Assembly: GCA_001818495.1 (NCBI GenBank)
Contig: MHKS01000005.1
Span: 12,288-76,287, forward strand
Length of the DNA: 64,000 nucleotides
Direction: 5' to 3'
DNA from: Candidatus Komeilibacteria bacterium RIFOXYD1_FULL_37_29
Lineage (GTDB): Bacteria; Patescibacteriota; Patescibacteriia; UBA1558; GWA2-36-10
The stretch's first letter is position 1. Each line of letters opens with the position of its first letter. Below the pieces are notes generated by a model, which was not told the DNA's origin, searched no databases, and was given only the letters and a program-made list of their open reading frames with translations. A program made the translations under genes and the position numbers. Below are positions 5,410 through 63,742 of this stretch, piece after piece.

Positions 5410-6129
5410 CTATTTTTTATCAACAATTTCTACCTCGTGTTTTTTTCGCCAGCCCAAAACTAGATACTGTTGAGCCACTGATAAGAGGGTGCTAAAAAAC
5501 CAATAAAAAGTTAAACCGGCTGGAAAACGCGAGCCAATAAAAATAGTTACAATGGGCATAATATAAGTCATCTGTGCACCCATACCAGCCATTCCACCGG
5601 CATTAGATTGTTTCTTACTCATTAACATCTTGGATTGCCAAAATTGTGCCGCACCAGCGAGCACTGCTAACCACCAGCTATTTTTTGCTAAATCTAGAAA
5701 CCCAAAGGCGATATGCTTTAATACTCCAGGATTATCTACAAAAGGATAAAGCGCCTGCATGGCATTGTCGTCAGTCAGGCCGTTGAAGAAAACTCTATAG
5801 ATAGCAAAAAGAAAAGGCAGTTGAATAAGCATGGGCATGCAAGAAGAAAATGGATTGATTCCTTTGCGCTTATAAAGAGCCATCAACTCCGGACCAAGTT
5901 GATCTTTGTTGTCTTTGTGTTTTTGTTTAAGTTCTTCTATTTCTGGTTGTAGAGTAGCTAATTCTTTTTGAGACTTAATGGCTTTTTTGGAAGGAATATA
6001 AAGAACTAATTTTATAATCACAGTGATAACAATAATAGCCACACCCAAATCGTGTCCGGGCAAAATATTATAAATATAAACTAGCAGGTTAAAAATCGGT
6101 TCGTAAAAGATTGTATTAAATATTCCCAT
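5410..6129 (-). CDS. yidC: membrane protein insertase YidC (short Gram-positive/CPR type)
   Basis: 239 aa multi-TM; position in the rpmH-rnpA-yidD-yidC block. Confidence 0.85.
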   Translation of the reverse strand: MGIFNTIFYEPIFNLLVYIYNILPGHDLGVAIIVITVIIKLVLYIPSKKAIKSQKELATLQPEIEELKQKHKDNKDQLGPELMALYKRKGINPFSSCMPMLIQLPFLFAIYRVFFNGLTDDNAMQALYPFVDNPGVLKHIAFGFLDLAKNSWWLAVLAGAAQFWQSKMLMSKKQSNAGGMAGMGAQMTYIMPIVTIFIGSRFPAGLTFYWFFSTLLSVAQQYLVLGWRKKHEVEIVDKK

Positions 6130-6780: not shown

Positions 6781-6921
6781 TTAAACGGTTAAAATCTTAC
6801 GACCCCTTTTTCGACGACGGCTCAAAACTTTTTTGCCGTTTTTGGAAGCCATTCTAGCACGAAAACCGTGAGTCTTAGCTCTTTTTCTAGTATTTGGTTG
6901 ATAGGTTCTCTTAGTAGCCAT
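6781..6921 (-). CDS. rpmH: 50S ribosomal protein L34 (not in the ORF track, 46 aa)
   Basis: Reverse translation gives [46 protein letters not shown], a textbook L34. Confidence 0.9.
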
Positions 6922-7014
6922 ACATTCTTAAATTTCCCAATTAGATTAAATATTTTGACCATCAAACAATAACATATTATAAATATTTTTTCAAGGTTAA
7001 AGATCTTAAAAAAG

Positions 7015-7033
7015 TTATCCACAGTTATCCACA
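7015..7033 (+). promoter_or_regulatory. two tandem perfect DnaA boxes (TTATCCACA g TTATCCACA) just upstream of dnaA
   Basis: Exact consensus 9-mers read directly in the sequence; they fall inside the spurious N-terminal extension of the dnaA ORF. Confidence 0.65.
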
Positions 7034-7122
7034 TGCTATTCACACCATATCAACTACCACCGATATTTTATCTGTGGTATAGTTATACACAGCTAATTTT
7101 TAGACTAAAAATCGCTAAAAAA

Positions 7123-8508
7123 ATGGAAAATAATGACAAAATTTGGGAAAAAACTTTAGGAGAATTAGAGCTCTTAATTAGTAAGGCCAACTTTACCACT
7201 TGGTTTAAAAACACCTTTGTTGCTACTATAGAAAATAACGATATCACCGTGGGCGTACCAAATGCCTTTACTAAAGTTTGGCTAGAAAAAAAATATCATG
7301 ACCAAATTATAGCCGCCCTAGAAAATGTCTTGTCTAAAAATAATCTACAAATTATCTACAAGGTTATTACTAAGGATAGGTCTGCGAATATTAGCCAAGA
7401 AAATACAAAAAAAGTTAATATTAGTAACGGAAAAGAAACCGAAACAATCCAAACATCCACCGAAAACCGCCAGCCAACAGTGGCCCGCTTTGGCTTAAAT
7501 ACTCAATATGTTTTTGAAAGTTTTGTAGTTGGTCCGGGTAATGAATTGGCCCAGGCTGCTGCCCATGCTGCTGCCCAAAAACCAGGCCAAATATATAATC
7601 CGCTCTTTATTTATGGTGGTGTTGGTTTGGGCAAAACTCACTTAGTGCAGGCTGTTGGCAACTATATTTTAGCCAAAGATCCCACTAAAAAGGTAGTTTA
7701 TATTAATAGTGAAAAATTTACCAATGATTTTATTTTTGCTATTAAATCCGGTCAAACTGATAAATTCAAACAAACCTATCGTAATATTGATGTTTTACTA
7801 ATTGATGATATCCAGTTTATCGCTGGTAAAGAGCAAACCCAGGAAGAATTTTTCCATACTTTCAACGCTCTTCATCAAAACAATAAACAAATTGTTATTT
7901 CTTCTGATCGCCCACCCAAGGCCATTCCGGGTATAGAAAATCGATTAATTTCCCGTTTTGAGTGGGGGATGATTGCTGATATTTCCGCTCCCGATCTAGA
8001 AACCCGTATGGCTATCTTAGAAATTAAGGCGCAAGAAAAAAAATATAAACTTAATAAAGATATTATTCACTATGTAGCTGAAAATATCCAAAATAACATT
8101 CGCGAACTAGAGGGTGCTTTAAATAGAATTATTGCCTTTCATCAACTAAACAACACCACACCCACCCTAGATAGTGTTAAGGCTATTTTGGGTGGTCTAT
8201 CTGCCAATCATCGCCGGGCCGGATTAACCCCACGTAAACTTTTAGAATCCATCAGCGTCTTTTATGATATTAGTATGGAAAACTTGCTCGGTGCTAGCCG
8301 TAAAAAAGAGCTGGTGGTTCCTAGACAAATCGCCATGTTTTTAATGCGGGAAGAATTAAAGGCCTCTTATCCCAACATTGGTCAAGAAATTGGGGGCCGA
8401 GATCACACCACCGCCATGCACGCCTGTATTAAAGTTACTACCTTAATAGAAATGGACGAAAAAATAAAAAACGATATCTTAATATTACGACAAAAAATCT
8501 ATGAATAA
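7123..8508 (+). CDS. dnaA: chromosomal replication initiator DnaA
   Basis: AAA+ Walker A GGVGLGKTHL, box VII, and a C-terminal DNA-binding domain. Start moved to MENNDKIWEK because the DnaA boxes lie upstream of it. Confidence 0.95.
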   Translation: MENNDKIWEKTLGELELLISKANFTTWFKNTFVATIENNDITVGVPNAFTKVWLEKKYHDQIIAALENVLSKNNLQIIYKVITKDRSANISQENTKKVNISNGKETETIQTSTENRQPTVARFGLNTQYVFESFVVGPGNELAQAAAHAAAQKPGQIYNPLFIYGGVGLGKTHLVQAVGNYILAKDPTKKVVYINSEKFTNDFIFAIKSGQTDKFKQTYRNIDVLLIDDIQFIAGKEQTQEEFFHTFNALHQNNKQIVISSDRPPKAIPGIENRLISRFEWGMIADISAPDLETRMAILEIKAQEKKYKLNKDIIHYVAENIQNNIRELEGALNRIIAFHQLNNTTPTLDSVKAILGGLSANHRRAGLTPRKLLESISVFYDISMENLLGASRKKELVVPRQIAMFLMREELKASYPNIGQEIGGRDHTTAMHACIKVTTLIEMDEKIKNDILILRQKIYE

Positions 8509-8782
8509 GTTGTTTATAAATTTTTAATAAGTCTGTAGATAAAAAATTATAAATTGTTAACAAACCCCGGACTTATAAACAAAAAATGGACATTCAAAAA
8601 TCACTGGGGATTAAATGACACTTATAAACAAAATTATTCATAACTTACCCCCACATAAAATATAAATAAAAACATAAATTAACTAGAGTTTTTCTCAAAA
8701 AATTTCTCTTATCAACATACCCACAGGCTCTAATACTAATACTTTATTTATATTATAATAATAACTAGTAAATAATAATTAT
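8509..8782. other. candidate oriC / DNA unwinding region between dnaA and dnaN
   Basis: Strongly AT-rich 274-nt spacer with three copies of the box-like TTATAAACA and one TTATCAACA; position is conserved for oriC in many bacteria. Confidence 0.4.
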
Positions 8783-9883
8783 ATGAAAATCGTTTGCACG
8801 CAGGAAAATTTAAACAAAGGATTATCTCTGGTTTCTAATATTGCCAATAAGAGTTCTAATCTTCCTATTTTAAACAATGTTTTATTAAAAGCCGACAAAG
8901 AAGGATTAACTCTGATAACCACCGATCTAGAAATAGGTATTAAGGCTCTTGTGCGCAGCAAGATAGAGGAGCAAGGAGAATTTACCGTTGATGCTAAGCT
9001 ATTACACAATTTCGTTTCTTTCTTGCCCAAAGAAAATATCGAACTAAATTTACAAGAAGATAGTTTGGAAATAAAAAGTTCCAATCAAGAGACCTCTATT
9101 AAGGGTTTGGTGGCCGAAGATTTTCCTCTTATTCCAGACATGGAAAAAACCAATATGGTAGAATTGCCGGTGCAGGAATTTAAAAAAGGACTACACCAAG
9201 TTATTTTAGCGGCTTCTTTGGACACCTCTCGGATTGAGATAAATGCTGTAAATTTTGATTTTCAAAATAATAATTTAGTGTTGGCAGCCACCGACAGCTA
9301 TCGCCTGGCTGAAAAGAAATTAAAATTAGCCAATGGTCAAAAAACTAGTTTAATCATTCCTCTTAAAACCCTCCAGGAATTAAGTCGTATTTTAAACGAG
9401 CAAGCTGAAAAGAAATTAAAGATTTATTTTAATGATAATCAAATATTGTTTGAGTTTGACGGAGTAGAGTTGACCTCTCGAGTTATTGATGGAAAGTATC
9501 CAGACTATAATCAAATTATTCCCGCCCAATTTAAAACCGAAGCCAAGTGTGAAATTAATAAACTGGTTCCCGCTATAAAATCAGTGGCGTTATTTTGTAA
9601 ACAGGGTATCAACGATATTCGTTTGAGCTTAGACAGCAAGAAACAAAAAATAGTTATTGCCACCGCCTCTTCTCACACCGGCACTTCGGTAGCCAAGGTA
9701 GATGCTAAAATATCCGGTGAGGACAACGATATTGTTTTTAACTATCGCTATCTTTTGGATGGTTTGGCACAACTGGGCAGTAGTGAGGTTAATATAAAAA
9801 TGAACAACAACGCCTCTCCAGGATTATTACAGCCGGTCAATGATGATAAATATATTTATTTGGTCATGCCTATTAGGCAATAA
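8783..9883 (+). CDS. dnaN: DNA polymerase III beta sliding clamp
   Basis: 366 aa with three-domain clamp architecture, immediately after dnaA. Confidence 0.9.
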   Translation: MKIVCTQENLNKGLSLVSNIANKSSNLPILNNVLLKADKEGLTLITTDLEIGIKALVRSKIEEQGEFTVDAKLLHNFVSFLPKENIELNLQEDSLEIKSSNQETSIKGLVAEDFPLIPDMEKTNMVELPVQEFKKGLHQVILAASLDTSRIEINAVNFDFQNNNLVLAATDSYRLAEKKLKLANGQKTSLIIPLKTLQELSRILNEQAEKKLKIYFNDNQILFEFDGVELTSRVIDGKYPDYNQIIPAQFKTEAKCEINKLVPAIKSVALFCKQGINDIRLSLDSKKQKIVIATASSHTGTSVAKVDAKISGEDNDIVFNYRYLLDGLAQLGSSEVNIKMNNNASPGLLQPVNDDKYIYLVMPIRQ

Positions 9884-35387: not shown

Positions 35388-35720
35388 ATGTTTATAAAAA
35401 AAATCATCTTAGCTGTTCTATTATTTCTTCCCAGCCTAGCTCAAGCTCAGGGCGGAGTGCCGTTACCCAATCCTTTGGAAGCTGAAAGCATACCAGAGTT
35501 GGCTGGGCAAATGATTAAAGGTCTTTTAGGAGTCACCGGGGCCATTGCCTTGTTTATGTTGGTCTGGGGAGGTATAGTTTGGATGACTTCTGGGGGTAAT
35601 TCCAATCGCGTAGAGCAGGGTAAAAATACTATTTTATGGGCTATATTGGGGATAGTTATTATATTTATGAGTTATATTATATTGAATTTTGTCTTTGATT
35701 TGATTGGTGGCAATGCCTAG
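35388..35720 (+). CDS. secreted two-TM small protein, paralog 1 (VirB2/TrbC pilin-like topology)
   Basis: Sec signal peptide ending LAQAQ, then TM1, a WMTSGGN loop and TM2. Start moved to MFIKKIIL. Confidence 0.6.
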   Translation: MFIKKIILAVLLFLPSLAQAQGGVPLPNPLEAESIPELAGQMIKGLLGVTGAIALFMLVWGGIVWMTSGGNSNRVEQGKNTILWAILGIVIIFMSYIILNFVFDLIGGNA

Positions 35721-35802
35721 ACACTGTTGATAAAGAATTGTAAAAAAGTGATTTTTGTTTTATACTTTAATTAACATTTTATATTAGAAAGGGGGTGAAA
35801 CA

Positions 35803-36162
35803 ATGAAAAAAATACTTACTTCTTTATTGCTTTTATTACCAGTAGTAGCCAATGCTCAAACAAACCTAGAGGATTGGGGATACAATGATTTTTCAGACAC
35901 TGACATTAAATTAGGATCAAGACCTCTAAGAGACACAATTGGTGGTGTAGTAAACATCATTTTGGGATTTTTAGGAATTTTGACAACTTTAATTATTCTA
36001 ATGGGCGGCTTTAAGTGGATGACTTCACAAGGTAACACTGAAAAAGTTGATGAGGCTAAAAAACTTATCGGCGCTGGTGTTGTCGGTTTAGTTATCGTAT
36101 TAACAGCTTACGCCGTATCTAGATTCGTATTAAGCGAATTATATTCACAAACTGTTGTTTAG
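35803..36162 (+). CDS. secreted two-TM small protein, paralog 2 (VirB2/TrbC pilin-like topology)
   Basis: Signal peptide ending VVANAQ, then TM1, a WMTSQGNTEKV loop and TM2; strong SD (AAAGGGGGTGAAAC). Confidence 0.65.
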   Translation: MKKILTSLLLLLPVVANAQTNLEDWGYNDFSDTDIKLGSRPLRDTIGGVVNIILGFLGILTTLIILMGGFKWMTSQGNTEKVDEAKKLIGAGVVGLVIVLTAYAVSRFVLSELYSQTVV

Positions 36163-36172
36163 TTGACCTATT

Positions 36173-36212
36173 TAGTCTAGACTATAGTAGGTCATTAACT
36201 AATGACCTACTA
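36173..36212. promoter_or_regulatory. two abutting perfect palindromes (12 nt TAGTCTAGACTA and 28 nt TAGTAGGTCATTA-AC-TAATGACCTACTA)
   Basis: Read directly from the sequence, between paralog 2 and 3; no U-run follows. Confidence 0.4.
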
Positions 36213-36238
36213 GAGCTTATACTACATGACAAAAATAG

Positions 36239-36619
36239 ATGTTAAAAAAATTTTATAAATTATCCTTAGCTTTATTTTTATTTTTTGTGCCAGTATTTTT
36301 TGCGTCTGCTCAAGTGATTGGTCAAGATAGTTTAGCTACTGCCGCTCAAAAAGCTGGTTTTGGTGGAGAGACAGATGTTTATGTAATTATTACTCGTTTT
36401 ATCAACGGTTTCCTATCCATTTTTATGATGGTTTTTTTGTATTTTATTATTGCGGCTGGTTTTACTTGGATGACTTCTGGAGGTAATGCTGAAAAGATAA
36501 ATACCGCCAAAGAGACCATTAAATATTCATTGATTGGCATAGTTGTAGCTTTAACTGCTTATTCTCTGGCGCGGTATGTATTATTTGCTATGGGAGCGAC
36601 CACTGGTATTGTCAGGTAA
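36239..36619 (+). CDS. secreted two-TM small protein, paralog 3 (VirB2/TrbC pilin-like topology)
   Basis: Signal peptide ending FFASAQ, then TM1, a WMTSGGNAEKI loop and TM2. Confidence 0.65.
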   Translation: MLKKFYKLSLALFLFFVPVFFASAQVIGQDSLATAAQKAGFGGETDVYVIITRFINGFLSIFMMVFLYFIIAAGFTWMTSGGNAEKINTAKETIKYSLIGIVVALTAYSLARYVLFAMGATTGIVR

Positions 36620-41620: not shown

Positions 41621-43096
41621 ATGAAAAAAAACCTTAAGATAGTTTCCATATCTTCAGAGGTTGATCCATATTCTAAAACTGGCGGATTGGCCGACGTGGC
41701 TCGCTCTTTGCCCAAGTCTCTTTTTCGTTTGGGTCATCAGGTAATTATTATTACCCCATTTTATGAAAAAGTGATTGATCAGGGAGCCTATAAGCTGGAT
41801 AAAATATATAGCGATGTTAGTTTGTATATGGATAGTGGAAGTGAAATTAAGGTCGCCTATTATCGGACAGAACTAGTGCCAGGATTATCAGTTTATTTTG
41901 TGGGCAATGAAAAATATTTTTCTCGTCGTAAGCAAATTTATGGATCAGACCATGAAAATGCTCGTTTTTATGTATTTTCAGTCGCCGCTTTAAAGCTGAT
42001 ATCTTTATTAAAGTTTGATGCTGATATCATACATTGCCATGATTGGCATACGGGGCTTATCCCTCATTTGAAGAAAACTCGTTTTAAAGATAGTCATACT
42101 TTGGCCAAAGCAGCCACTGTTTATACTATCCATAATTTAGTTTTTCAAATGGGGCGTCCCTGGTGGGAGGTCTCCAGTAAGAATAAAGATAATGGTAAAA
42201 AAGCTTTACCACTTTTATCCGATCATAGCTTAGAGTATTTCAATTTTGCTAAACGGGGTATTTTGGAAGCTGATGTCATAAATACTGTGTCAGAAACTTA
42301 TGCCCAAGAAATAATGGCCAAAGATTTTGGTCAAGACCTCCATCGTATTTTGCTCAATCGTCGTCACAAGTTATTTGGAGTAGTAAACGGCATTGATTAT
42401 AAAAATTATAATCCTAAAACCGATCGGGGTTTATATAAAAATTATACGCCCGACAAAATAGATTTGAAATTATTGAATAAAAGGTATTTACAAAAGTTTT
42501 ATCATTTACCGGTCAAAGATAATATCCCGCTGCTTGGTTTTACTTCTCGGATTGCTGAGCAAAAAGGCCTGGATTTAATTGTCGAGATACTTCCGACCTT
42601 ACTTTTGCGTGATGTGCAATTCATTATTATGGGGGATGGTGATAAGGAATATATTAATAAAATAAAAAAAATTCAGCGAAGATTTCCGTCTAAATTGGTT
42701 TGTGTGTCTTTTGACAGAAAAATGGAGACCTCTGTTTATGCTGGTGGCGATATGTTTTTACTACCTTCTCGTTTTGAACCATGCGGTATTAATCAGTTGA
42801 TTAGTTTCCGCTATGGCTGCGTGCCGATTGTCCGCAGTATCGGTGGGTTGTCTGATACAGTAGTAAATTTTGATCCCGAGACCAATTCTGGTAATGGTTT
42901 TACCTTTAAACATTATAATGCTAGTGAATTTTTAGTGGCTGTGACCAGAGCTCTGGAGACATATAAATATAAAACTGCCTGGAAGAAAGTAATTAGGAAT
43001 GGTATGGATGTTTCATTTTCTTGGGACTTGCCAGCTATTAAATATGTTCAATTATACAAGCGAGCTATAAAATTTAAGAAAGAAAATGGTAAATAA
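41621..43096 (+). CDS. glgA: glycogen/starch synthase (GT5), paralog 1
   Basis: N-terminal EVDPYSKTGGLADV, the K-x-GGL nucleotide-sugar motif. Confidence 0.85.
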   Translation: MKKNLKIVSISSEVDPYSKTGGLADVARSLPKSLFRLGHQVIIITPFYEKVIDQGAYKLDKIYSDVSLYMDSGSEIKVAYYRTELVPGLSVYFVGNEKYFSRRKQIYGSDHENARFYVFSVAALKLISLLKFDADIIHCHDWHTGLIPHLKKTRFKDSHTLAKAATVYTIHNLVFQMGRPWWEVSSKNKDNGKKALPLLSDHSLEYFNFAKRGILEADVINTVSETYAQEIMAKDFGQDLHRILLNRRHKLFGVVNGIDYKNYNPKTDRGLYKNYTPDKIDLKLLNKRYLQKFYHLPVKDNIPLLGFTSRIAEQKGLDLIVEILPTLLLRDVQFIIMGDGDKEYINKIKKIQRRFPSKLVCVSFDRKMETSVYAGGDMFLLPSRFEPCGINQLISFRYGCVPIVRSIGGLSDTVVNFDPETNSGNGFTFKHYNASEFLVAVTRALETYKYKTAWKKVIRNGMDVSFSWDLPAIKYVQLYKRAIKFKKENGK

Positions 43097-44243
43097 AATA
43101 ACTTGGGTAAATTTTTTGCATATTTATCAACCACCTTGGCAAAGCAAGGGGGTGGTTGAGCAAGTGGCTAGCGAAAGTTATGATTATTTGTTGACTTTAT
43201 TGGAAAAATATCCAAATTTTACAATAAGTTTGAATATTTCTGGATCTTTGGCCGAGCAACTAAATGTTTATCGTCCAGATTTATTAAAAAGATTAAAATC
43301 TTTAATTACTTGTGGGCAAGTAGAGCTGACTGGCAGTTCTCATTATCATGCTCTATTACCACTACTACCTAAAGTAGAGATAAAAAGACAAATACAGTTA
43401 AATCAGGAAGCCATAGATAAATATTTTGCCATTAAAAAAATGCAGGGTTTTTATTTGCCGGAAATGGCCTATTCTGATCAGATAGCAAAAATAATTAAGC
43501 AGCTGGGATTTCGGTGGATTATTTTAGATCCGATACATTGTCCAGATAAGATCCAACCAGGATTCAACTATATTCACAAATCAACCGGTCTAAAGGTAAT
43601 TTTTAGAGATCGTCAGATATCAAAGTCCTATCCAGCGGAGATTATTTTTAATAAATTAAAAGATAATCAGTCTAGCCAGACAATTATTAGTGCTACGGAC
43701 GGTGAAATTTATGGCCATTTTCATGAGGATTGGCAGGGCTGTTTGGAAAAGATTTTATTAAACAAAAATTTGAGCATGCCGACAGTTTCTCAGTATTTGG
43801 AAGTTTTTCGGCCAGTGAAAAAAATTTCTCTTCGGCCAGCTTCTTGGGAGAGTCTAGAGAGCGAAATAAAAAAAGGCATTCCCTTTGCTTTGTGGGATCA
43901 TCCCCAAAATAAGATTCATCAGCTATTGTGGTCTTTGGTAGCTTTGTCTATTAAACTAGTCAATAAGTATAAACGAGACAAAAATTGGTCTTGGGCCAGA
44001 CAGCACCTAGATCGTGGCTTGACTTCTTGCACTTTTTGGTGGGCCAGCGCTCAAAAACCATCAGATTTTTCCCCTCTAACTTGGAATCCAGACATGATAG
44101 ACAATGGTGCAGAGGAACTGATTAGATCGGTAAGGTCTTTGAGCTTAGCCACTAGCCCAGAAAAGATTAAAGCCGAGAAATTGTATATGGGTATTAAAAA
44201 AAATACTTGGTTTAATCATTGGAATAAATATAATAAAAAATAG
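43086..44243 (+). CDS. glycoside hydrolase family 57 protein (alpha-glucan branching / 4-alpha-glucanotransferase-like)
   Basis: N-terminal NFLHIYQPPWQ, the HxHQP-type motif of GH57. Confidence 0.7.
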   Translation: MVNKITWVNFLHIYQPPWQSKGVVEQVASESYDYLLTLLEKYPNFTISLNISGSLAEQLNVYRPDLLKRLKSLITCGQVELTGSSHYHALLPLLPKVEIKRQIQLNQEAIDKYFAIKKMQGFYLPEMAYSDQIAKIIKQLGFRWIILDPIHCPDKIQPGFNYIHKSTGLKVIFRDRQISKSYPAEIIFNKLKDNQSSQTIISATDGEIYGHFHEDWQGCLEKILLNKNLSMPTVSQYLEVFRPVKKISLRPASWESLESEIKKGIPFALWDHPQNKIHQLLWSLVALSIKLVNKYKRDKNWSWARQHLDRGLTSCTFWWASAQKPSDFSPLTWNPDMIDNGAEELIRSVRSLSLATSPEKIKAEKLYMGIKKNTWFNHWNKYNKK

Positions 44244-44246
44244 TTT

Positions 44247-45314
44247 ATGAAGTTATCAGAAACTACTAAACAAAAAATCGCTCAGCTAATAGCCAAAGAT
44301 TTTGTTTGTCATATTTTTAATGAACGCTTGAAAAAGTATTATTCGGATTTTAAAGAAGTTAAAAGTATTGAAACAAAGCCTTTTAAAAAACATCTGGGAT
44401 TAACTAGTGCCGTCTTTGTAGTGGAGTATCAGATTAAATATCTGAGCAGTCAGGGCGCTTTAAAAGATTTGGATATTTTTGTTTCAGCTCATTCTGATGG
44501 TTCTAGAAAGGGAGCTTATGAAAAAACCAAGACTTTGTATGAGCATGGTTTTGGCCAAGGAAAATATAGAGTAACCAAACCTTTGTTTTTTTTGGATGAG
44601 CAACAAGCTTTTTTTTATGTCTCTTCCCCCGGCCGAAGCTTTTTTAGTTTTTTTCTAGAAAATACCCAAGCTGATTTGACCAAGGCTATGGAATTAATGG
44701 CTGGTTGGCTTAAACAGTTACACAATTTTGATACAAAAATAGCAAATTTTAAGTGGCCAATTTTTAATATTTTAGATATGGTACCTACTCCGCAAAAATT
44801 CGTTAAGGATTTTTATAATAGTAGTGACAAATTAGGCCAACACATGGATAATTTAGTCAAAGACCTTCAGGCTTTGGATTTAGAGTATCGTCAGAAAAAT
44901 AAAGAGACTTTAGTTTATGGTGATTTTCATCCAGAAAATGTCATTATGCGTGGTCTAGATGTCCAGGACATTGAAATGATTGATTTTACCGACATTGCTC
45001 TAGGAGATCCGATGATGGATATTGGTGCATTTATTCAGCAATTTGATTTTATGGGTCACAATTTTATTTCTCGCCCAGAGATTGATAGACACAAACAATC
45101 TTTTGTGGAAATTTATTTTGGTCAAAAATTTGAAGAAATTGATATTGAATATATTAACCGTATCAATTTATATCAGTCTTGGACGGCTATGCGCACCGCA
45201 GTTTTTCTTTTTTATATGAAAAATGTTTTTAATCCTATTGATGATCTTTTGCTCGATAGCATCAAGTATTTAGACATGGCCAAAAATAGTCAGCGCGCTA
45301 TTAATATTAGTTAA
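44247..45314 (+). CDS. APH/choline-kinase-fold phosphotransferase (maltokinase-like?)
   Basis: Catalytic loop GDFHPENVI and the IDFTDIALGDPMMDIGAF metal-binding segment. Confidence 0.6.
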   Translation: MKLSETTKQKIAQLIAKDFVCHIFNERLKKYYSDFKEVKSIETKPFKKHLGLTSAVFVVEYQIKYLSSQGALKDLDIFVSAHSDGSRKGAYEKTKTLYEHGFGQGKYRVTKPLFFLDEQQAFFYVSSPGRSFFSFFLENTQADLTKAMELMAGWLKQLHNFDTKIANFKWPIFNILDMVPTPQKFVKDFYNSSDKLGQHMDNLVKDLQALDLEYRQKNKETLVYGDFHPENVIMRGLDVQDIEMIDFTDIALGDPMMDIGAFIQQFDFMGHNFISRPEIDRHKQSFVEIYFGQKFEEIDIEYINRINLYQSWTAMRTAVFLFYMKNVFNPIDDLLLDSIKYLDMAKNSQRAINIS

Positions 45315-45315
45315 T

Positions 45316-45894
45316 ATGAAAAAACTTAAATACAATATTATTTTTGAAGGAGCAGAGTTAGCTGGCAAAAGCTACTTAATGAGTCAGGTTTATGATTATT
45401 TGGAGCCCAAATACAATAGTGGAGGCAAGATTATGGATGGTTGTCATTGGTTCAATTGCGATGTGGGAATTTTTGGTACCAAATTTGGTCAAAAAGCCCT
45501 CGAACATTATTTAGGACTGTTGGAGGATATAACAGATGTTAGTGTTATGATAGAAAAATTTCACCTGACGGAAGCAGTTTATCAAAAATTGTATAATCAG
45601 AAAGATTTTAATTTTTCCAAGATGGAAGAGCGGCTTTATAAGATAAAAACTAAGATTGTTTTATTAATTTTTGATGAAGATGAAAAATTACTCCAGCAAA
45701 GATTGGATGATCGCTTAAAATTGTACCATCACTATAGTCGGATTGCCAGTCGTCCGGCAGATTATATCAAACAGCAACAGCTTTATTTGGAGTTTATAAA
45801 AAAAAGTAAGTTAGATTATTTGATTATCAACTCATCGAAGTTGCCCAATCCGTCTTTGGTAGCTAAGATTTTGGAATTTTTAGGAGAAAAATAA
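45316..45894 (+). CDS. P-loop NTPase, nucleoside/nucleotide-kinase-like
   Basis: 192 aa with Walker A FEGAELAGKSY. Confidence 0.45.
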   Translation: MKKLKYNIIFEGAELAGKSYLMSQVYDYLEPKYNSGGKIMDGCHWFNCDVGIFGTKFGQKALEHYLGLLEDITDVSVMIEKFHLTEAVYQKLYNQKDFNFSKMEERLYKIKTKIVLLIFDEDEKLLQQRLDDRLKLYHHYSRIASRPADYIKQQQLYLEFIKKSKLDYLIINSSKLPNPSLVAKILEFLGEK

Positions 45895-45910
45895 TATTTA
45901 GGATAATTTT

Positions 45911-46756
45911 ATGCGCCAAGCTTTTATTGGTTTTGATGTCGGTGGCACCAACATTGCCGCCGGAATAGTTTCGCCCCATGGTAGGATTTTAAAGTTTATT
46001 TCTCATCCCGCTGAAGCTAAAAAAGGAAAAAAACAAATTGCTCAAAATACTCTATTAGTTTTGGATAGTCTTTTAAAATCCAATATTAGCTGTTTGGGGC
46101 TATGTTTGGCTTGGCCTAGTCCAGCCAATATGCCGCTAACCTTAGAGGAAATAAAGGGTATTATAAACAAGAAATATCGTTATCCAATTTATTTTGAAAA
46201 TGATGCCAATTTGTTTACTTTGGCCGAGGCTTTAATTGGTCAGGGTAAGAAATATAAAACAGTAGTGGGGCTGACTCTGGGTACTGGTATTGGTTGCGGG
46301 GTAGTAGATAATAAAAAGATTTTCAATGGGCGTGGTTTAGCTTCTGAATTTGGTCATGTTTCATTAAATTTTAATGGACCAGTTTGTGTTTGCGGTCAGC
46401 GCGGCTGTTTTGAGGAATATGCAGGATCTAGGACTTTGCGGCGCTTGGCTAAAAAATATAAATTATCCAGTCAAACTGGTCGCGAGCTTTATGATTTAGC
46501 CAAAGGTGGAAATAAAAAAGCCTTAAAAGTTTGGCAGGACTTTGGTAAAAATTTAGGCCTAGGTTTAAATGGCGTAATCAAGGCCTATGATCCAGATATT
46601 ATAGTTTTGGGTGGTCAAATATCTCGGGCTTATCAGTTTTTCAAAGGAGCTATGTATCAAGAGTTACGCTACAGGCCATTTTTTAAACTACCAATCATTA
46701 AAGTGTCAAAGTTAAAAAACGCAGCCATTGTGGCAGCCGCTTTTATGGACAAATAA
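45911..46756 (+). CDS. ROK-family glucokinase
   Basis: N-terminal FIGFDVGGTNIAAG and the ROK zinc motif CVCGQRGCFE. Confidence 0.8.
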   Translation: MRQAFIGFDVGGTNIAAGIVSPHGRILKFISHPAEAKKGKKQIAQNTLLVLDSLLKSNISCLGLCLAWPSPANMPLTLEEIKGIINKKYRYPIYFENDANLFTLAEALIGQGKKYKTVVGLTLGTGIGCGVVDNKKIFNGRGLASEFGHVSLNFNGPVCVCGQRGCFEEYAGSRTLRRLAKKYKLSSQTGRELYDLAKGGNKKALKVWQDFGKNLGLGLNGVIKAYDPDIIVLGGQISRAYQFFKGAMYQELRYRPFFKLPIIKVSKLKNAAIVAAAFMDK

Positions 46757-46858
46757 ATTAAGCAAAGCTTTCGATTAAAAGCGTCTTTTTAGTAATAGTC
46801 TAAGGAGGCGTTTTTTGGTATAATGATGGTATTAAATATTATTTAAAAACTAGCAATA

Positions 46859-48343
46859 ATGGCCGATAATAAATTAGAAATAGTCATGACTGGAGCAGAG
46901 ATGTCGCCGTTTGTTAAGGTTGGTGGTTTGGGTGATGTAGCCGGATCATTACCTTTAGCTTTGGCTAAATTGGGTGTTAATGTTAAGTTTTTTCTGCCAC
47001 TTTATGGAGCCATTGATAGAAATAAATTTAAAATTAAACAGTTTAAAAAAGATTTTAGTGTCATAATACACGGACAAGAACATTTTTTTGATATTTATCA
47101 AACCAAATTGGCGACGGGCGTCAATGTTTTTTTTATAAAAAATGAGGTGTTTGATTTCGCGGATATTTATATTGGTGGTCGCAAATATCTGGACAAGAAT
47201 AAACAGGGGGTTTATACCCGTAAGCTCAGCGACATAAAAAGATTTGTCTTTTTTTCCAAGGCAGTAGTGGAAACCATAAAACAATTGAAATGGCAGCCAG
47301 ATTTGGTCCATGCGCATGATTGGCATACGGCTATGTTGCCAGCTTTTATTGATGAATATAGCCTAAAATATGATAATTTTAAAAATATTAAGAGTCTTTA
47401 TACTATTCACAATTTGGCCAACCAAGGAGTAGCTGGTTTGGATATCTTAGATTATGCTGGTTTGGATAAAGATTTGAGTCCAGCAGTTATGGAAGATTAT
47501 CATGATCAGGACGGTGGCAAAATCAATGCCATGAAATTGGGTATCTTATCAGCTGATTATATCAATACTGTCAGCCCCAGCTATGCTAAAGAGATCTTAA
47601 CCAAAGAATATGGTGCTCATTTAGAAGAGTATTTGAATCGCCGGAAAAAACATTTAGTGGGTATTTTAAATGGTTTGGATTTTAAGTTATTTGATCCAGC
47701 CAAAGATAAAAACATCGGGCAGAATTATTCAGTTAAAGATTTTTTAAAAGGTAAGGAGAGTAATAAACAAGTTTTACAAAAAGTTAGCCAATTACCAGTC
47801 AGAGATGTTCCGGTTTTTGGTTTGGTGTCTCGTTTGGTTGCCCAGAAAGGCCTAGATATTTTACTGGAAGCCCTAGAAGAAAGGATAACTCAGTTTGATT
47901 TTCAAATAATAATACTGGGCACGGGACAAAAATATTTCGAAGATCATTTTAGGTCCTTAGCGCAAAAATATCCAGAAAAATTCGCGGCTCACATTGGTTT
48001 TTCTCTGCCTTTGGCGCAAAAAGTTTATGCGGGAGCGGATTTTTTTCTAATGCCATCTCGTTTTGAGCCTTGTGGCTTGGGGCAAATGATAGCCATGCGC
48101 TATGGGGCTATACCAGTAGTCCGAGCTACTGGGGGGTTAAAAGATACAGTAGTCGATAATAAAACCGGTTTGGTCTTTAAGGCTTATAATAAACAGGAAA
48201 TGGGGAAAGTTTTGGATAGATCTTTGACCCTCTATAAAAATAAAGCCAAATTTGTTAAAATTTTAAAGGCTGGGATGGAACAAGATTTTTCTTGGGACAA
48301 ATCGGCTAAAGAGTATTTGAAGCTCTATAATAAATTGAAATAG
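46859..48343 (+). CDS. glgA: glycogen/starch synthase (GT5), paralog 2
   Basis: N-terminal MSPFVKVGGLGDV plus GT-B C-terminal motifs; roughly 30% identical to paralog 1 by eye. Confidence 0.85.
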   Translation: MADNKLEIVMTGAEMSPFVKVGGLGDVAGSLPLALAKLGVNVKFFLPLYGAIDRNKFKIKQFKKDFSVIIHGQEHFFDIYQTKLATGVNVFFIKNEVFDFADIYIGGRKYLDKNKQGVYTRKLSDIKRFVFFSKAVVETIKQLKWQPDLVHAHDWHTAMLPAFIDEYSLKYDNFKNIKSLYTIHNLANQGVAGLDILDYAGLDKDLSPAVMEDYHDQDGGKINAMKLGILSADYINTVSPSYAKEILTKEYGAHLEEYLNRRKKHLVGILNGLDFKLFDPAKDKNIGQNYSVKDFLKGKESNKQVLQKVSQLPVRDVPVFGLVSRLVAQKGLDILLEALEERITQFDFQIIILGTGQKYFEDHFRSLAQKYPEKFAAHIGFSLPLAQKVYAGADFFLMPSRFEPCGLGQMIAMRYGAIPVVRATGGLKDTVVDNKTGLVFKAYNKQEMGKVLDRSLTLYKNKAKFVKILKAGMEQDFSWDKSAKEYLKLYNKLK

Positions 48344-48347
48344 CCTT

Positions 48348-49286
48348 ATGTCTAAAATGAAAAAGCCAGAGTTAAGAAAAGATTATATTCAGGAGAAGTA
48401 TGTTATTATTGCACCCAAACGCGGTAAAAGACCGCATGATGTTATCAAACCAACAGATCATCATAAGCAAATGGTCTCTTCTTGTATATTTTGTCCCAAC
48501 AATATTAAGGAGGTTCGCAGTTTATATAAAAAAGGTGAGGGAGAAAATTGGGCTATCAATGTTATTGCCAATAAATATCCGGCGGTATCGCTAGATAATG
48601 ACAAAGCTTATGGTACCCAAGAAGTGGTGATAGAAACAGCAGATCATACTTTAGAACTGGAAGATTTGTCCATTGAGCAGATTGCTGATTTACTGGAAGC
48701 TTATGCCTGGCGTACTAAGGAAATATCCAAAGATGATAAAATTGATTATATTTTAATTTTTAAAAACGATGGTGGTGTAGCTGGTGCATCTTTACAACAT
48801 GCCCATTCTCAGATTTTTGCCACCAATTTTTTACCGCCGCATTTGGTAGACAAATCTCAGCGACAGCAGGCCTACAAACTGGAGCACGGTAATTGTGTTT
48901 ACTGTGATGTGCTAAAAAAAGAGTCCAAAGGACCCCGCTTAGTTTATCAAGATAAAGAAGTAATGGCTTTTACTCCTTACGCTTCTATGTTTAATTATGA
49001 AATATGGATTATGCCCTTAAAGCATCGGGATAATATCACTGAGTTATCAGCTCCAGAACGGCATTCTTTTGCTAAAATACTGAAGCATATTTTGATAAAA
49101 ATCGGTCAACTAGATTTGCCTTATAATTTTTATTTTCATCAGATCATCAATGATAATGATCAGCATCTTTATATGAAAATAGTGCCCCGCGGATCAGTCT
49201 GGGCTGGAGTAGAGATTGGTTCTGGTCTCATTATCAATCCGATTGATCCCGATGATGCTGCTGAATTTTATCGACAAGGATTATGA
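48348..49286 (+). CDS. galactose-1-phosphate uridylyltransferase-family (HIT-like GalT / ADP-glucose phosphorylase-like) protein
   Basis: Zn site CIFCPNN and the nucleotidyl-His motif HAHSQIF. Confidence 0.65.
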   Translation: MSKMKKPELRKDYIQEKYVIIAPKRGKRPHDVIKPTDHHKQMVSSCIFCPNNIKEVRSLYKKGEGENWAINVIANKYPAVSLDNDKAYGTQEVVIETADHTLELEDLSIEQIADLLEAYAWRTKEISKDDKIDYILIFKNDGGVAGASLQHAHSQIFATNFLPPHLVDKSQRQQAYKLEHGNCVYCDVLKKESKGPRLVYQDKEVMAFTPYASMFNYEIWIMPLKHRDNITELSAPERHSFAKILKHILIKIGQLDLPYNFYFHQIINDNDQHLYMKIVPRGSVWAGVEIGSGLIINPIDPDDAAEFYRQGL

Positions 49287-49924
49287 TCAAAGCTATTATT
49301 TTCGACATGGACGGAGTAATATCCGATACTCAACAAAATCATTCGCAAACCGAAGCGGCTATTTTAAATGATTGTGGAATAAAAATTACGGCTGATGAAG
49401 TAACGGCCAAGTATTCTAGCGTTAGGGTAGAAGATATTTTTAGAGATTTATTTAAAAAATATAATATTCAAGCCGATATTGAGGCTTTGGCTGTTAAGAA
49501 GAGAAAAATGGTTTTAGCTTCTTTAAAAAAAGAGGTTACACCAATAGAAGGAATTCATAATTTAGTAAATACTTTATATTCTGCCAAGTATGAGTTGGCT
49601 GTCGGGACTACCTCATCGGTAGCCAATGCTAATATTATCTTAAAAACTTTGAAGTTGTCTGATAAGTTTTCGTTTATTGCCAGTGGACATGATGTAAAAA
49701 ATGGAAAACCAGCACCTGATGTTTTCTTGCTAGCAGCCAAAAAATTAAAAGTAAAACCTCAAGAGTGTTTGGTAATTGAAGACGGTTTGGCGGGCATGCA
49801 GGCTGCTAAAAATGCTGGTATGAAGTGTATTGGTTTGGTTAAGACAAAAAATAAAAATTACCAAGCTGATATTTTGGTGAATAAATTAGGGGATATCTCC
49901 TTAGAGTTAATTAAGAAATTGTAG
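49283..49924 (+). CDS. HAD-superfamily hydrolase, beta-phosphoglucomutase-like
   Basis: N-terminal IIFDMDGVISDT, plus K and DD motifs. Confidence 0.8.
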   Translation: MIKAIIFDMDGVISDTQQNHSQTEAAILNDCGIKITADEVTAKYSSVRVEDIFRDLFKKYNIQADIEALAVKKRKMVLASLKKEVTPIEGIHNLVNTLYSAKYELAVGTTSSVANANIILKTLKLSDKFSFIASGHDVKNGKPAPDVFLLAAKKLKVKPQECLVIEDGLAGMQAAKNAGMKCIGLVKTKNKNYQADILVNKLGDISLELIKKL

Positions 49925-61234: not shown

Positions 61235-62038
61235 TTGGCTGTTGTATGTCAAAATTTACGGTATAAAAATTGTATGGAAATAGTTTTCATTTTTTGGCTA
61301 ATTTTAATTATCGGTTTCTTTATCCTCATTGGCCTGAGGATTGTCGATCAATATGAACGTGGTGTAGTGTTGACATTGGGAAAATATACCGGCACTCGTT
61401 CGCCTGGCCTAACTTGGATTTTTGTTGGAATTCAACGAATGATGAAAGTAGATTTACGTATTACAACGACCGATATACCGCAACAAGAAGTTATTACCAA
61501 AGATAATGTTCCCGTAGGTATAAATGCAGTGGTTTATTTTCAAGTGCAAAATGCTGAAAATGCTCTTTTGAATATCAAAGATTATACGACAGCCGTTTCG
61601 CAATATGCTCAAGCAGCCCTTCGCGATGTTATTGGTGCTATTGAGCTTGACCCTTTGCTTTCTGAAAGAGAAAAAATTGCTGAAGAAGTTCAAAAAATTG
61701 TCAGTGCCGCTACTCAATCATGGGGTATTTTGGTTACCGATATAAAAATTCAGGATATTGAGCTACCGGCCGACATGAAGCGTGTTATGGCTAAGCAAGC
61801 AGAATCAGAGCGAGAACGACGGGCTATTATTATTAGAGCTGAGGGAGAATTTCAAGCTTCTGAACGCTTGGCTCAAGCCGCTAAAGTGCTGGGCGCTACT
61901 CCAGGTGGTCTTTCTATGAGAACACTACAGACAATAGAAAAAATAAACCCAGACCCATCAAAGACTGTAATCTTTGCTCTGCCAGTTGAGGTGTTTGAGG
62001 GTATCAAAGCAATATCTCAAACAGTTAAATCTAAGTAA
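61235..62038 (+). CDS. SPFH/Band-7 (stomatin-like) membrane protein
   Basis: N-terminal TM helix, then RIVDQYERGVVLTLGKY... and a coiled-coil tail. Confidence 0.85.
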   Translation: MAVVCQNLRYKNCMEIVFIFWLILIIGFFILIGLRIVDQYERGVVLTLGKYTGTRSPGLTWIFVGIQRMMKVDLRITTTDIPQQEVITKDNVPVGINAVVYFQVQNAENALLNIKDYTTAVSQYAQAALRDVIGAIELDPLLSEREKIAEEVQKIVSAATQSWGILVTDIKIQDIELPADMKRVMAKQAESERERRAIIIRAEGEFQASERLAQAAKVLGATPGGLSMRTLQTIEKINPDPSKTVIFALPVEVFEGIKAISQTVKSK

Positions 62039-62049
62039 TAAAAAAGCTG

Positions 62050-62994
62050 TTATTTTATCTCTTTGAGGAAAGACTCAGCTAATTGAGCAGTTTCTGCGCT
62101 AGCTTGATAAAAGTTTTTCCAGACGACGACTATATCAGCATCATTAAAAGTCGCTCGTTGGACTTCTCTTATTGTATCTCCTCCGGCGATAGCTACTAAT
62201 ATATTATAGTTTCCCTTAATTTGTTTTATTTGATAGTAGGGAATTTGTTTTTCTTTAGAAAATTCAGTCTCATCAACTCCTCTATGAAGTATTACTACAT
62301 CGGGGAGTTTTTTTAATTTTTTTAAAACAACTATCGCACTTTCAACATTCATCATATCAATCATTGAATCAACGTTGAATTTTTGGCATTCCTCTATAAA
62401 ATTATCAATTGTTTCAATCGGCGCTACTCCTAGACATGTTACGGCATTAGCGCCGGCAGTAGCCATCATTTCTACTTCGCGGGCGGCTAAGTCGGCACAT
62501 TTACTATCGGCTACTATATATGCTCCAATCGGAGCCATTGCTTTTATCCGTGATACAGCTTCCGTTCCGTATATTTTTATTAAAGGTGTTCCCGCTTCAA
62601 TTAAAATTCTATCGGAAGTCGGTAGTTGCCAAATAATTTCCCTTGCTTCTTCCAGAGTACTATTGAGGGCTACCTGAAGATATTTTTTCTTTTTTTCTAA
62701 TCGGGTTGTTTTATTGAATAATAAGCTAGGAATTTGCAACGGCATAGCAGATTTGAGGGAGCTGATTTTTTCTAAAATTGGTTGAGTATTGTTAGCTAAA
62801 CTGTTTGGTAGTTTATTTACTGTCTTTAGATAATTGGCAAAATCGGGATTTAAATATTTTAATTTTTTTCTTAAGAAAATCATAAGGGCAATTATACCAA
62901 TAAATCCCAAAATTGGATTTCTGAGCAAAATAATAATAAGACCAACAATTATTAGGACTGCTAGGTTAAGATTTCGGGGTTTTTTATTTTCCAT
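62050..62994 (-). CDS. 3-hexulose-6-phosphate synthase / KGPDC-family (OMPDC suprafamily) protein with an N-terminal roughly 100-aa two-TM extension
   Basis: The C-terminal 210 aa align with HPS (YLQVALN.., EAGTPLIK, VADSKCADLA = AD-x-K-x-x-D, LHRGVDE, AGG). The N-terminus adds two hydrophobic helices. The ATG sits 2 nt after the upstream paralog's stop. Confidence 0.65.
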   Translation of the reverse strand: MENKKPRNLNLAVLIIVGLIIILLRNPILGFIGIIALMIFLRKKLKYLNPDFANYLKTVNKLPNSLANNTQPILEKISSLKSAMPLQIPSLLFNKTTRLEKKKKYLQVALNSTLEEAREIIWQLPTSDRILIEAGTPLIKIYGTEAVSRIKAMAPIGAYIVADSKCADLAAREVEMMATAGANAVTCLGVAPIETIDNFIEECQKFNVDSMIDMMNVESAIVVLKKLKKLPDVVILHRGVDETEFSKEKQIPYYQIKQIKGNYNILVAIAGGDTIREVQRATFNDADIVVVWKNFYQASAETAQLAESFLKEIK

Positions 62995-62996
62995 AG

Positions 62997-63665
62997 TTAT
63001 TTAACCAATTTCAAAAATTCTCGCGCTAAATTAGCAGTATTTTTAGGGTTTTCATAAAAAGACTTCCAAATAACCGTAATATCAGCGTCATTAAAAAAGC
63101 TTCTCACTACATCGCGTGGCATTTCTCCACCAGCCACTGAGATTAGAACATTGCCGTAAGTGCCTTTGATGCGGTGAATTTGATCGTGTGGTATTTTTTT
63201 TCCATTTTTATTTTCATTTTCATCTACTCCGCGATGTAAAACAACTACAGTTGGAAGTTTTTTTAATTTTTGTAAAATCTCAAAGGGAAATTCTATATTC
63301 ATCATATCAACCATTGAATCAATGCCGGCTTTTTCACACTCCTTGATAAATTCATTTATAGTGGCTATTGGTGCCAAACCTAAACAAGTAGCGGCAGAAG
63401 CGCCAGCAGTAGCTACTGCCTCAACTTCCCGAGATCCCCTATCCATACATTTTAAATCAGCCACAATATAACCCGGTTTATGTATTTTTTCACTCCACCA
63501 GTTTTTTAAGGTACTGATGCCACTCTGTCCATATTTTTTAATAAAAGGAGTACCGGCTTCAATAATTATTTTTTCCGAAGCCGGAAGTAGGGTAATCATT
63601 TCTCTGACATCAGCCAGAGAACGATTAAAAGCAATTTGTAGATATTTTGATTTGCGATTTAGCAT
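62997..63665 (-). CDS. 3-hexulose-6-phosphate synthase / KGPDC-family protein (soluble paralog)
   Basis: 222 aa with YLQIAFN, EAGTPFIK, VADLKCMDRG and LHRGVDE, the same family as the downstream paralog. Confidence 0.7.
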   Translation of the reverse strand: MLNRKSKYLQIAFNRSLADVREMITLLPASEKIIIEAGTPFIKKYGQSGISTLKNWWSEKIHKPGYIVADLKCMDRGSREVEAVATAGASAATCLGLAPIATINEFIKECEKAGIDSMVDMMNIEFPFEILQKLKKLPTVVVLHRGVDENENKNGKKIPHDQIHRIKGTYGNVLISVAGGEMPRDVVRSFFNDADITVIWKSFYENPKNTANLAREFLKLVK

Positions 63666-63742
63666 AGTATTATAGATTATTATATCTAATTTTTAATAAA
63701 TTGCCCAGCCATAGTAAAATTTTAAAAAATGAATTTTACTAT

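Follow-up and report, generated by a model that had tools for sequence, protein, structure and literature searches.

Canonical HPS enzymes (HxlA/RmpA) are soluble and are usually encoded adjacent or fused to PHI, and the reverse ribulose-monophosphate (RuMP) route is used in many archaea. KGPDC (UlaD/SgbH) is a dimeric barrel with the enediolate/Mg2+ scaffold that is common to this branch of the OMPDC suprafamily. Prokaryotic stomatins, in turn, are found in pairs with partner proteins, such as PH1511 with the NfeD-type protease PH1510 and Escherichia coli QmcA with YbbJ. Here, we study two adjacent genes, A and B, that lie together with a stomatin gene near the end of a stretch of 64,000 nucleotides (hereafter, the window) from Candidatus Komeilibacteria bacterium RIFOXYD1_FULL_37_29 (assembly GCA_001818495.1, contig MHKS01000005.1, positions 12,288 to 76,287). 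We show that A and B are paralogues of the HPS/KGPDC branch, and sequence comparisons indicate that they and the stomatin gene form a module specific to the Candidate Phyla Radiation (CPR, Patescibacteria).

The HPS domain of the archaeal Fae-HPS (NF009833/PRK13307) shares with A and B the barrel and the motifs EAGTP, ADxKxxD, DMMN, HRGxDxE, and AGG. Unlike Fae-HPS, A and B have no Fae domain (the N-terminus of B is a hydrophobic hairpin followed by a linker), carry Asn for Asp in strand 1 and V-W-K for V-G-R in strand 8, are duplicated into an obligate pair in which B often has the membrane hairpin, and neighbour a stomatin gene rather than a C1 or pentose gene. B has the same fold as HxlA/RmpA (TIGR03128; structures 3ajx, 3f4w, and the fusion 9lj9), with a TM-score of 0.85–0.86 normalised to the target, and both proteins have the Mg-ligand and Lys/Asp motifs of these enzymes and the HPS-type residues at KGPDC positions 112, 139, and 169. 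Yet the identity to the three solved HPS chains is only 25–30%, two invariant positions differ, and no PHI lies near A and B in the loci that were searched. KGPDC (1kv8 and its mutants) belongs to the same branch of the suprafamily and gives strong structural matches, but its Glu112 and Arg139 are replaced by Asp and Val in A and B, and the sequence scores are 44–48 bits. The stomatin–partner pairs resemble the module in that a stomatin orthologue is tightly linked, here by synteny, to a membrane-anchored partner. However, the Pfam scan of B finds OMPdecase only and no NfeD domain, the partner is here a pair of sugar-phosphate TIM barrels, and the stomatin gene and A/B are convergent instead of forming one operon.

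A and B are paralogues of the HPS/KGPDC branch

Both genes are on the minus strand. Gene A (62997–63665), the upstream member of the pair, is a 222-aa open reading frame (ORF) for an HPS-like TIM-barrel subunit without an anchor, and gene B (62050–62994) is a 314-aa ORF for an HPS-like subunit with a predicted N-terminal membrane hairpin. The TAA of A (62997–62999) is separated by 2 nt from the ATG of B (62992–62994), whose stop codon is at 62050–62052. These are exactly the two ORFs, with the same spacing, that had been described in an earlier annotation made from the letters alone (the sequence-only reading). That reading had put the identity of the two proteins at about 50% by eye, close to the BLASTP result (121/221 identities, or 55%, E = 1e-80, for residues 99–314 of B and 2–222 of A). 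Candidatus Komeilibacteria bacterium RIFOXYC1_FULL_37_11 has a protein with the same sequence as A (100% identity), and the orthologues of A have 219–224 aa and 71–100% identity. B is also present on contigs of RIFOXYC1_FULL_37_11, GCA_001818445.1, and its full-length homologues have 59–81% identity.

Just 5' of A, two overlapping sigma-70-like matches (63669–63707, minus strand), which are the two best on the gene strand, form a candidate operon promoter; they agree with the consensus at 10/12 positions each and are consensus matches only. Between A and B, we found no sigma-70-like site comparable to those upstream of A. Because the best promoter-like sites are just upstream of A, the arrangement fits the co-transcription of A and B as one operon, with a spacing suited to translational coupling.

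The Pfam profile of OMPdecase/HUMPS (PF00215) matches B with 68.2 bits (residues 105–302) and A with 54.3 bits, both above the cut-off of 27. AlphaFold, run on B with an alignment of 73 sequences, returned a confident barrel of eight strands at residues 105–313 (pLDDT > 90). Together with the alignment, these data place the catalytic (beta/alpha)8 barrel at residues 99–314 of B (62053–62700, minus strand). Hence, membership of the OMPDC suprafamily is supported for B by both the Pfam threshold and the barrel, and for A by the Pfam threshold. With the curated models and the fold, this shows that A and B are paralogues of the HPS/KGPDC branch of the suprafamily, as the sequence-only reading had proposed.

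Their position within the branch is less conventional. Among the curated models, the HPS half of Fae-HPS (PRK13307/NF009833) scores highest, with 189.9 bits for B and 167.3 bits for A; these scores are below the cut-off of 274, and the match covers only model positions 161–379. The HxlA model (TIGR03128) gives 103.9 bits for B and 98.6 bits for A, below the equivalog cut-off of 200, and the UlaD models (NF009831/PRK13306) give 44.6–48.1 bits for the two proteins, below cut-offs of 294 or 250. The pyrF equivalog models matched neither protein at E <= 0.01. Proteins of the A and B types are currently named "Fae/Hps" (by JGI pipelines), "KGPDC", and "OMP decarboxylase" (by NCBI, for some members); as judged by these scores, A and B fail the curated tests for all these names. 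The top Foldseek matches of B are the HPS structures 3f4w and 3ajx, the KGPDC 1xbz, and the HPS-PHI 9lj9, with OMPDC structures lower. An exhaustive search of 1.84 billion cluster representatives returned only 58 clusters at E <= 1e-30. Below the A- and B-type clusters, the scores drop to proteins with 39–44% identity, several of which carry Fae and pass the PRK13307 cut-off. In a neighbour-joining tree, the CPR A and B sequences are a single clade, characterised by the Asn and Trp-Lys residues described below, which is sister to an archaeal group of the Fae-HPS type.

The active site is conserved but for two replacements

B retains E133, D163-x-K165-x-x-D168, D213, H237, V240, and A270-G271-G272. 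All of these except D213 are invariant in 73 B-type sequences, as are N111 and W292 but not K293. In phmmer alignments, E133, D163, K165, D168, and H237 align with the same residues of the HPS and KGPDC chains of the PDB. In the KGPDC mutant E112D/R139V/T169A (1xbx), which is said to have been made, in the work of Gerlt and Rayment, to raise HPS activity, the residues aligned with D213 and V240 are D112 and V139; A270 is the Ala preceding Gly-Gly, as in the solved HPS chains. Because D213 and V240 match the Asp and Val introduced in this mutant, they favour specificity of the HPS type over that of the KGPDC type.

This bears on the alternative, raised in the sequence-only reading, that the pair is a KGPDC-like decarboxylase of the UlaD/SgbH type, with a 3-keto-acid sugar phosphate as its substrate. 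Such an enzyme would be of the same suprafamily branch and fold, and KGPDC structures are among the top Foldseek matches. Yet UlaD/PRK13306 scores only 44–48 bits against cut-offs of 250–294, compared with 167–190 bits for the Fae-HPS half, positions 112 and 139 have Asp and Val (D213 and V240), as in HPS, and not Glu and Arg, and the family groups with archaeal HPS domains in the tree. We therefore regard a KGPDC-like activity as extremely unlikely.

Two positions depart from the pattern of the branch in both proteins. The strand-1 Asp (LQVAL-D) is replaced by Asn (N111 in B), and the strand-8 V-G-(R/G/S) by V-W-K (W292-K293 in B). In a motif table comparing A and B with 100+ cluster representatives, N111 and W292-K293 are found in the CPR A/B representatives, with few exceptions, and never both in an outgroup representative aligned at these positions. 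The strand-1 Asp is kept in the solved HPS and KGPDC chains and in nearly all outgroup representatives, and strand 8 reads G-R, G-G, or G-S in nearly all of the latter. The strand-1 Asp is part of a charged network that the whole suprafamily shares, and the strand-8 Gly-Arg helps to hold the phosphate of the substrate; in the HPS active-site literature, we found no usable account of what the strand-1 Asp does. All the HPS motifs quoted in the sequence-only reading are present in the two proteins, but one of them, YLQ[IV]A[FL]N, is not an HPS signature, since canonical HPS, KGPDC, and Fae-HPS read AL-D. Its Asn is, on the alignments, a family-specific departure.

Since the strand-1 Asp and the phosphate-loop Gly are missing, A and B could be non-catalytic pseudoenzymes, whose barrel binds a ligand or regulates or occupies the stomatin assembly, and a partnership with a scaffold protein, and not with metabolic genes, would suit such a role. 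However, none of the 73 sequences departs from the metal ligands (E133 and D163), the K165/D168 dyad, H237, or the AGG loop, and the replacements N, W, and K are themselves nearly invariant, which points to retuning rather than decay. We consider it very improbable that the proteins are pseudoenzymes. Because the Asn and Trp-Lys replacements are conserved, the active site has probably been retuned and not lost.

A, B, and a stomatin gene form a module in CPR

We analysed 42 non-redundant loci, obtained from 39 species genomes of a genome scan and from further contigs. By reciprocal phmmer scores, the copies fall cleanly into an A and a B orthologue group, and all 41 loci with enough flank have one A-type and one B-type gene, in the order A then B. 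In 36 of these 41 loci, B starts between −4 and +6 nt from the stop of A. Because every locus has one member of each group, the A/B duplication predates the sampled CPR lineages.

We then clustered into families all genes within 5 kb of B in the 42 loci. Besides A/B (42/42 loci), the SPFH/Band-7 family is present in 38/42 loci, a small EF-Tu-domain-2-like protein in 8/42, and any other family in at most 4/42. Of the four loci that lack an SPFH gene, three stop at B or shortly after it, and the remaining one (L020) has no match in the ~1.1 kb after B. In the window, the stomatin-type SPFH/Band-7 gene (61274–62038, plus strand; Pfam Band_7, 137 bits) encodes one N-terminal transmembrane helix and converges on B, the stop codons of the two genes being separated by 11 nt. 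Its start is called either at TTG 61235 (267 aa, in ENA) or at ATG 61274 (254 aa, in NCBI), a difference of the stretch 61235–61273; we favour ATG 61274 because the orthologues have only ~20 residues before R-I-V-D-Q-Y-E-R-G. The protein scores 188 bits with human stomatin (9oh9), 173 bits with the stomatin of P. horikoshii (3bk6), and 116 bits with E. coli QmcA (8z5g), and is by this comparison a stomatin orthologue. SPFH proteins are described as ring- or dome-shaped membrane scaffolds (PMC12624060). The solved stomatin entries have 16 chains each.

The stomatin gene and B are convergent in most loci. They are on the same strand in L040 and L042, with stomatin upstream, and in L037, with stomatin downstream. 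Because the genes are convergent, stomatin would not be co-transcribed with A/B in most loci. The stomatin neighbour was seen in Komeili-, Parcu-/Paceibacterota, Minisyncoccia, Shapiro-, Peregrini-, and other CPR groups, including Moran-, Falkow-, Staskawicz-, Vogel-, and Wildermuthbacteria. As judged from gene order and sequence similarity, A, B, and stomatin are thus a three-gene module specific to CPR. In the literature on HPS/hexulose or SPFH in CPR, Patescibacteria, and Parcubacteria, we found no description of the A/B proteins or of the link to stomatin.

The small EF-Tu-domain-2-like gene belongs to a family of 85–89-aa proteins (PF03144, 45.7 bits; e.g., L006, 11422–11679, minus strand). 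In at least eight loci, it directly follows stomatin in the same orientation; it is absent from this position in the window. Besides L006, these loci include L008, L010, L011, L019, L025, L033, and L034, where it lies between B and stomatin: the gaps of ~270 nt contain no tRNA and have instead this gene on the minus strand. A small beta-barrel after stomatin is reminiscent of the beta-barrel C-terminal domain of NfeD partners. In the otherwise AT-rich Falkowbacteria contig of L024, the stretch between B and stomatin (5770–5885; 116 nt, 52% GC) has inverted GGGGGAGG/CCTCCCC-type repeats; a repeat element is one possible explanation, and a structured RNA or terminator is another.

B carries a predicted membrane hairpin in about half of the loci

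Residues 1–98 of B include two hydrophobic segments, LAVLIIVGLIIILL and ILGFIGIIALMIFL, with R-N-P between them. The AlphaFold model and the homologue alignments predict that they form a hydrophobic helical hairpin at residues 10–45 (LAVLIIVGLIIILL-RNP-ILGFIGIIALMIFL; 62860–62967, minus strand), with helices at 11–25 and 27–45 (pLDDT 83–88) and a break at N26-P27. The hairpin is followed by a poorly conserved and probably disordered linker (residues 46–98; 62701–62859, minus strand), in which pLDDT is below 50 at residues 46–50 and 52–94 and whose length and sequence vary among the aligned homologues.

The extension was expected to be too long to have remained open by chance, and this is borne out. 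At the window's GC content of 36%, 98 codons would be free of stops by chance with a probability of ~0.0012, and 105 of the 120 closest B homologues have an extension (counted when it has at least 60 residues). Among these 105 homologues, the hydrophobic block has a median of 39 residues, with Asn-Pro in its middle in 85 and Pro there in 98, and the commonest motif of the hairpin turn is NPILG. In the related loci, the extensions of B have 75 to 145 aa. A separate small gene directly upstream of B was seen in none of the related loci, and the internal Met84 (MPLQIPS) is not conserved among homologues. The long ORF of B is a real gene, because its start, extension included, adjoins the stop of A in 36/41 loci. 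We could thus rule out that the extension is a chance ORF or a gene-call artefact, given its conservation, the abutment to the stop of A, and the confident prediction of the hairpin.

The flanks of the hairpin are basic on both sides (KKPR on the N-terminal side and RKKLK on the C-terminal side of the hydrophobic block). From this, we infer an in-in topology with the barrel on the cytoplasmic side. Since each hydrophobic helix has only ~15 residues, the model makes a re-entrant (monotopic) hairpin and two true membrane spans equally plausible.

A hydrophobic N-terminal extension of B is present in 23/42 loci and absent in 19/42. The two-helix anchor of the sequence-only reading is therefore genuine and conserved, according to AlphaFold and the homologues, but it is not universal. 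Among the 23 loci, 21 have the two-segment block of the window, mostly with the central Asn-Pro, whereas L028 and L038 have only one hydrophobic segment, which is of another kind. In 15 of the 19 anchor-less loci, B begins with MILEK or a similar sequence, from a few to ~20 residues before K-Y-L, the conserved opening of the barrel, and these 15 short forms start directly after A. L037 has instead a B with a 55-residue non-hydrophobic extension. The anchor-less B of L040 (5995–6819), L041 (5995–6789), and L042 (5995–6804) has an insertion of ~50 residues inside the barrel, which is rich in charged residues and follows the IKIYG...I helix.

The anchor has been gained or lost recently, because the catalytic domains of some short forms are 84–88% identical to that of the window. 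It also follows from its absence in 19/42 loci that tethering via B is not essential to the module. We excluded that the 218-aa homologues are truncated calls: the MILEK start is 1–24 nt after the stop of A, which leaves no space for an extension. We also searched for a small separate transmembrane gene that could stand in for the lost anchor and found no rule, since only L039 has a hydrophobic ORF (39 aa) after B. An extra N-terminal hydrophobic helix of stomatin (M-x-NRSSNPIGSLV...) is present in L011, L019, L023, L025, L026, L033, and L041, all with a hairpin-less B, and in a single locus where B has the hairpin (L029). The association between the stomatin helix and the B hairpin has a Fisher p of ~0.01, computed on scorable loci with a strict sequence motif and no correction for phylogeny. 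The NPIG motif of this stomatin helix resembles the NPILG turn of B. In sequence terms, the anchoring element may have been swapped between B and stomatin.

Metabolic context of the pair

The sequence-only reading had placed the pair in a reverse RuMP pathway, and an ordinary HPS working with PHI in the reverse direction to produce ribulose-5-phosphate, with the duplication and the anchor as quirks of the lineage, deserves consideration. The nearest relatives of A and B are HPS domains of the archaeal Fae-HPS type (40–44% identity), the Mg ligands, D-x-K-x-x-D, the His, and the HPS-type D213/V240/A270 are kept, and the JGI pipelines name members "Fae/Hps". However, we detected neither SIS/PHI nor Fae in the 64-kb window (by Pfam tables and phmmer of the ORFs) or in ~10 kb around 45 related loci, where the single-sequence phmmer searches have limited sensitivity. 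The scores are below the cut-offs (104 against 200 for TIGR03128, 190 against 274 for PRK13307), and the strand-1 Asn and strand-8 Trp-Lys are found in none of the canonical representatives aligned at those positions. The strict A+B pairing and the stomatin neighbour would also be left unexplained. On balance, we regard this explanation as unlikely, although it is the weightiest of the alternatives.

No conserved metabolic neighbour of A/B was found among the families clustered over the 42 loci. A 262-aa gene of the inositol-monophosphatase family (Pfam, 220 bits) lies two genes upstream of A, beyond tRNA-Cys, in L001 (8074–8862), at a position ~0.7–1.5 kb past the right end of the window; we dropped it as a functional clue because it is not conserved beside the module in other lineages. 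The only sugar-metabolism genes of the window are those of a glycogen/sugar cluster (41621–49924), with two GT5-type glycogen synthase-like genes, a GH57 enzyme, an APH-family kinase, a ROK kinase, a GalT-like uridylyltransferase, and a HAD hydrolase; none of them is a pentose-phosphate or RuMP enzyme. The search of cluster representatives also returned, outside the CPR clade, two proteins with more than one HPS-like stretch each (P0326, 992 aa, and P0329, 968 aa). The N-terminal region of P0326 matches aldehyde:ferredoxin oxidoreductase (231 bits) and is followed by two HPS-type stretches, so that this protein looks like a formaldehyde-handling fusion. Elsewhere in the window, the neighbourhood of the replication origin (6781–9883) has rpmH, rnpA, yidD, and yidC on the minus strand, and dnaA (7123–8508) and dnaN (8783–9883) on the plus strand. 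Three tandem small genes with T4SS-pilin/TrbC Pfam matches are found at 35388–36619, followed by a gene for a 672-aa DUF2079 membrane protein.

Discussion

We propose that A and B form a heterodimer with HPS-type chemistry that is anchored on the cytoplasmic side of the membrane and linked in function to stomatin, a reading to which we give roughly even credence. The enzymes of the OMPDC suprafamily are obligate dimers, and the last Asp of their D-x-K-x-x-D motif comes from the partner subunit. Given this, the strict co-occurrence of A and B, the coupled stop and start codons, and the intact motifs in both copies, the most likely form would be a heterodimer with two hybrid active sites. The hairpin and the flexible linker of ~55 residues would hold this dimer at the inner face of the membrane, where it would work with the stomatin oligomer and possibly be corralled by it. 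The chemistry would most likely be an Mg2+-dependent, enediolate-based aldol/retro-aldol of the HPS type, interconverting a ketose phosphate with a ribulose-5-phosphate-like product and formaldehyde. Because purifying selection maintains both the strand-1 Asn and the strand-8 Trp-Lys, the enzyme may differ from canonical HPS in its physiological substrate or in the phosphate handle of that substrate. The sequence-only reading had considered localisation to a transporter complex. A membrane scaffold is the likelier partner, because A and B are always paired and stomatin is their one conserved neighbour.

Alternatively, A and B might be independent homodimers with different substrates, one soluble and one membrane-bound, and stomatin an incidental, if stable, neighbour. 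Subfunctionalisation of this kind is plausible because the A and B orthologue groups were already distinct when the sampled CPR lineages diverged. Stomatin is convergent and not co-transcribed in most loci. Against it, A is never found without B, nor B without A, in loci with enough flank, and the overlapping or abutting stop and start codons in 36/41 loci are typical of stoichiometric partners. Both copies have the same family-specific N and W-K changes along with all the active-site motifs. The synteny with stomatin outlasts the turnover of the other neighbours and survives rearrangement (L037, L040, and L042). These observations make two homodimers improbable.

Several results weigh against the tethered heterodimer itself. 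The scores of A and B are below every curated HPS cut-off, two otherwise invariant residues are changed, and there is no PHI partner near the genes at the loci searched. The anchor of B is absent in 19/42 loci, and where it is present, hydrophobic helices of ~15 residues would fit more than one membrane topology. The link with stomatin is one of synteny only, with convergent genes in most loci, and the basis for the heterodimer is gene order and knowledge of the family only.

A bolder and rather unlikely version of the proposal, which we offer tentatively, is that A/B is a retuned sugar-phosphate (or non-phosphate) lyase and a dedicated client of the stomatin cage at the cytoplasmic face. The hairpin and the 55-residue tether would keep the enzyme beneath the scaffold, and a reactive product such as formaldehyde would possibly be confined there. 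Where B has lost the hairpin, the extra N-terminal helix of stomatin may take over the contact.

CPR genomes have well under a thousand genes or so, and the central metabolism of these bacteria is little known. A module that is kept across many CPR classes in such tiny genomes is therefore likely to be important to them. The current labels of A- and B-type proteins can enter metabolic reconstructions. If A and B do form a heterodimer, with Asn and Trp-Lys at sites that are invariant in the suprafamily, they would be a natural experiment in the change of specificity of a much-studied barrel. To our knowledge, the clients of prokaryotic stomatins are mostly unknown. If the proposal is true, a conserved enzyme partner with a detachable hairpin would be a concrete enzymatic client of a prokaryotic stomatin.

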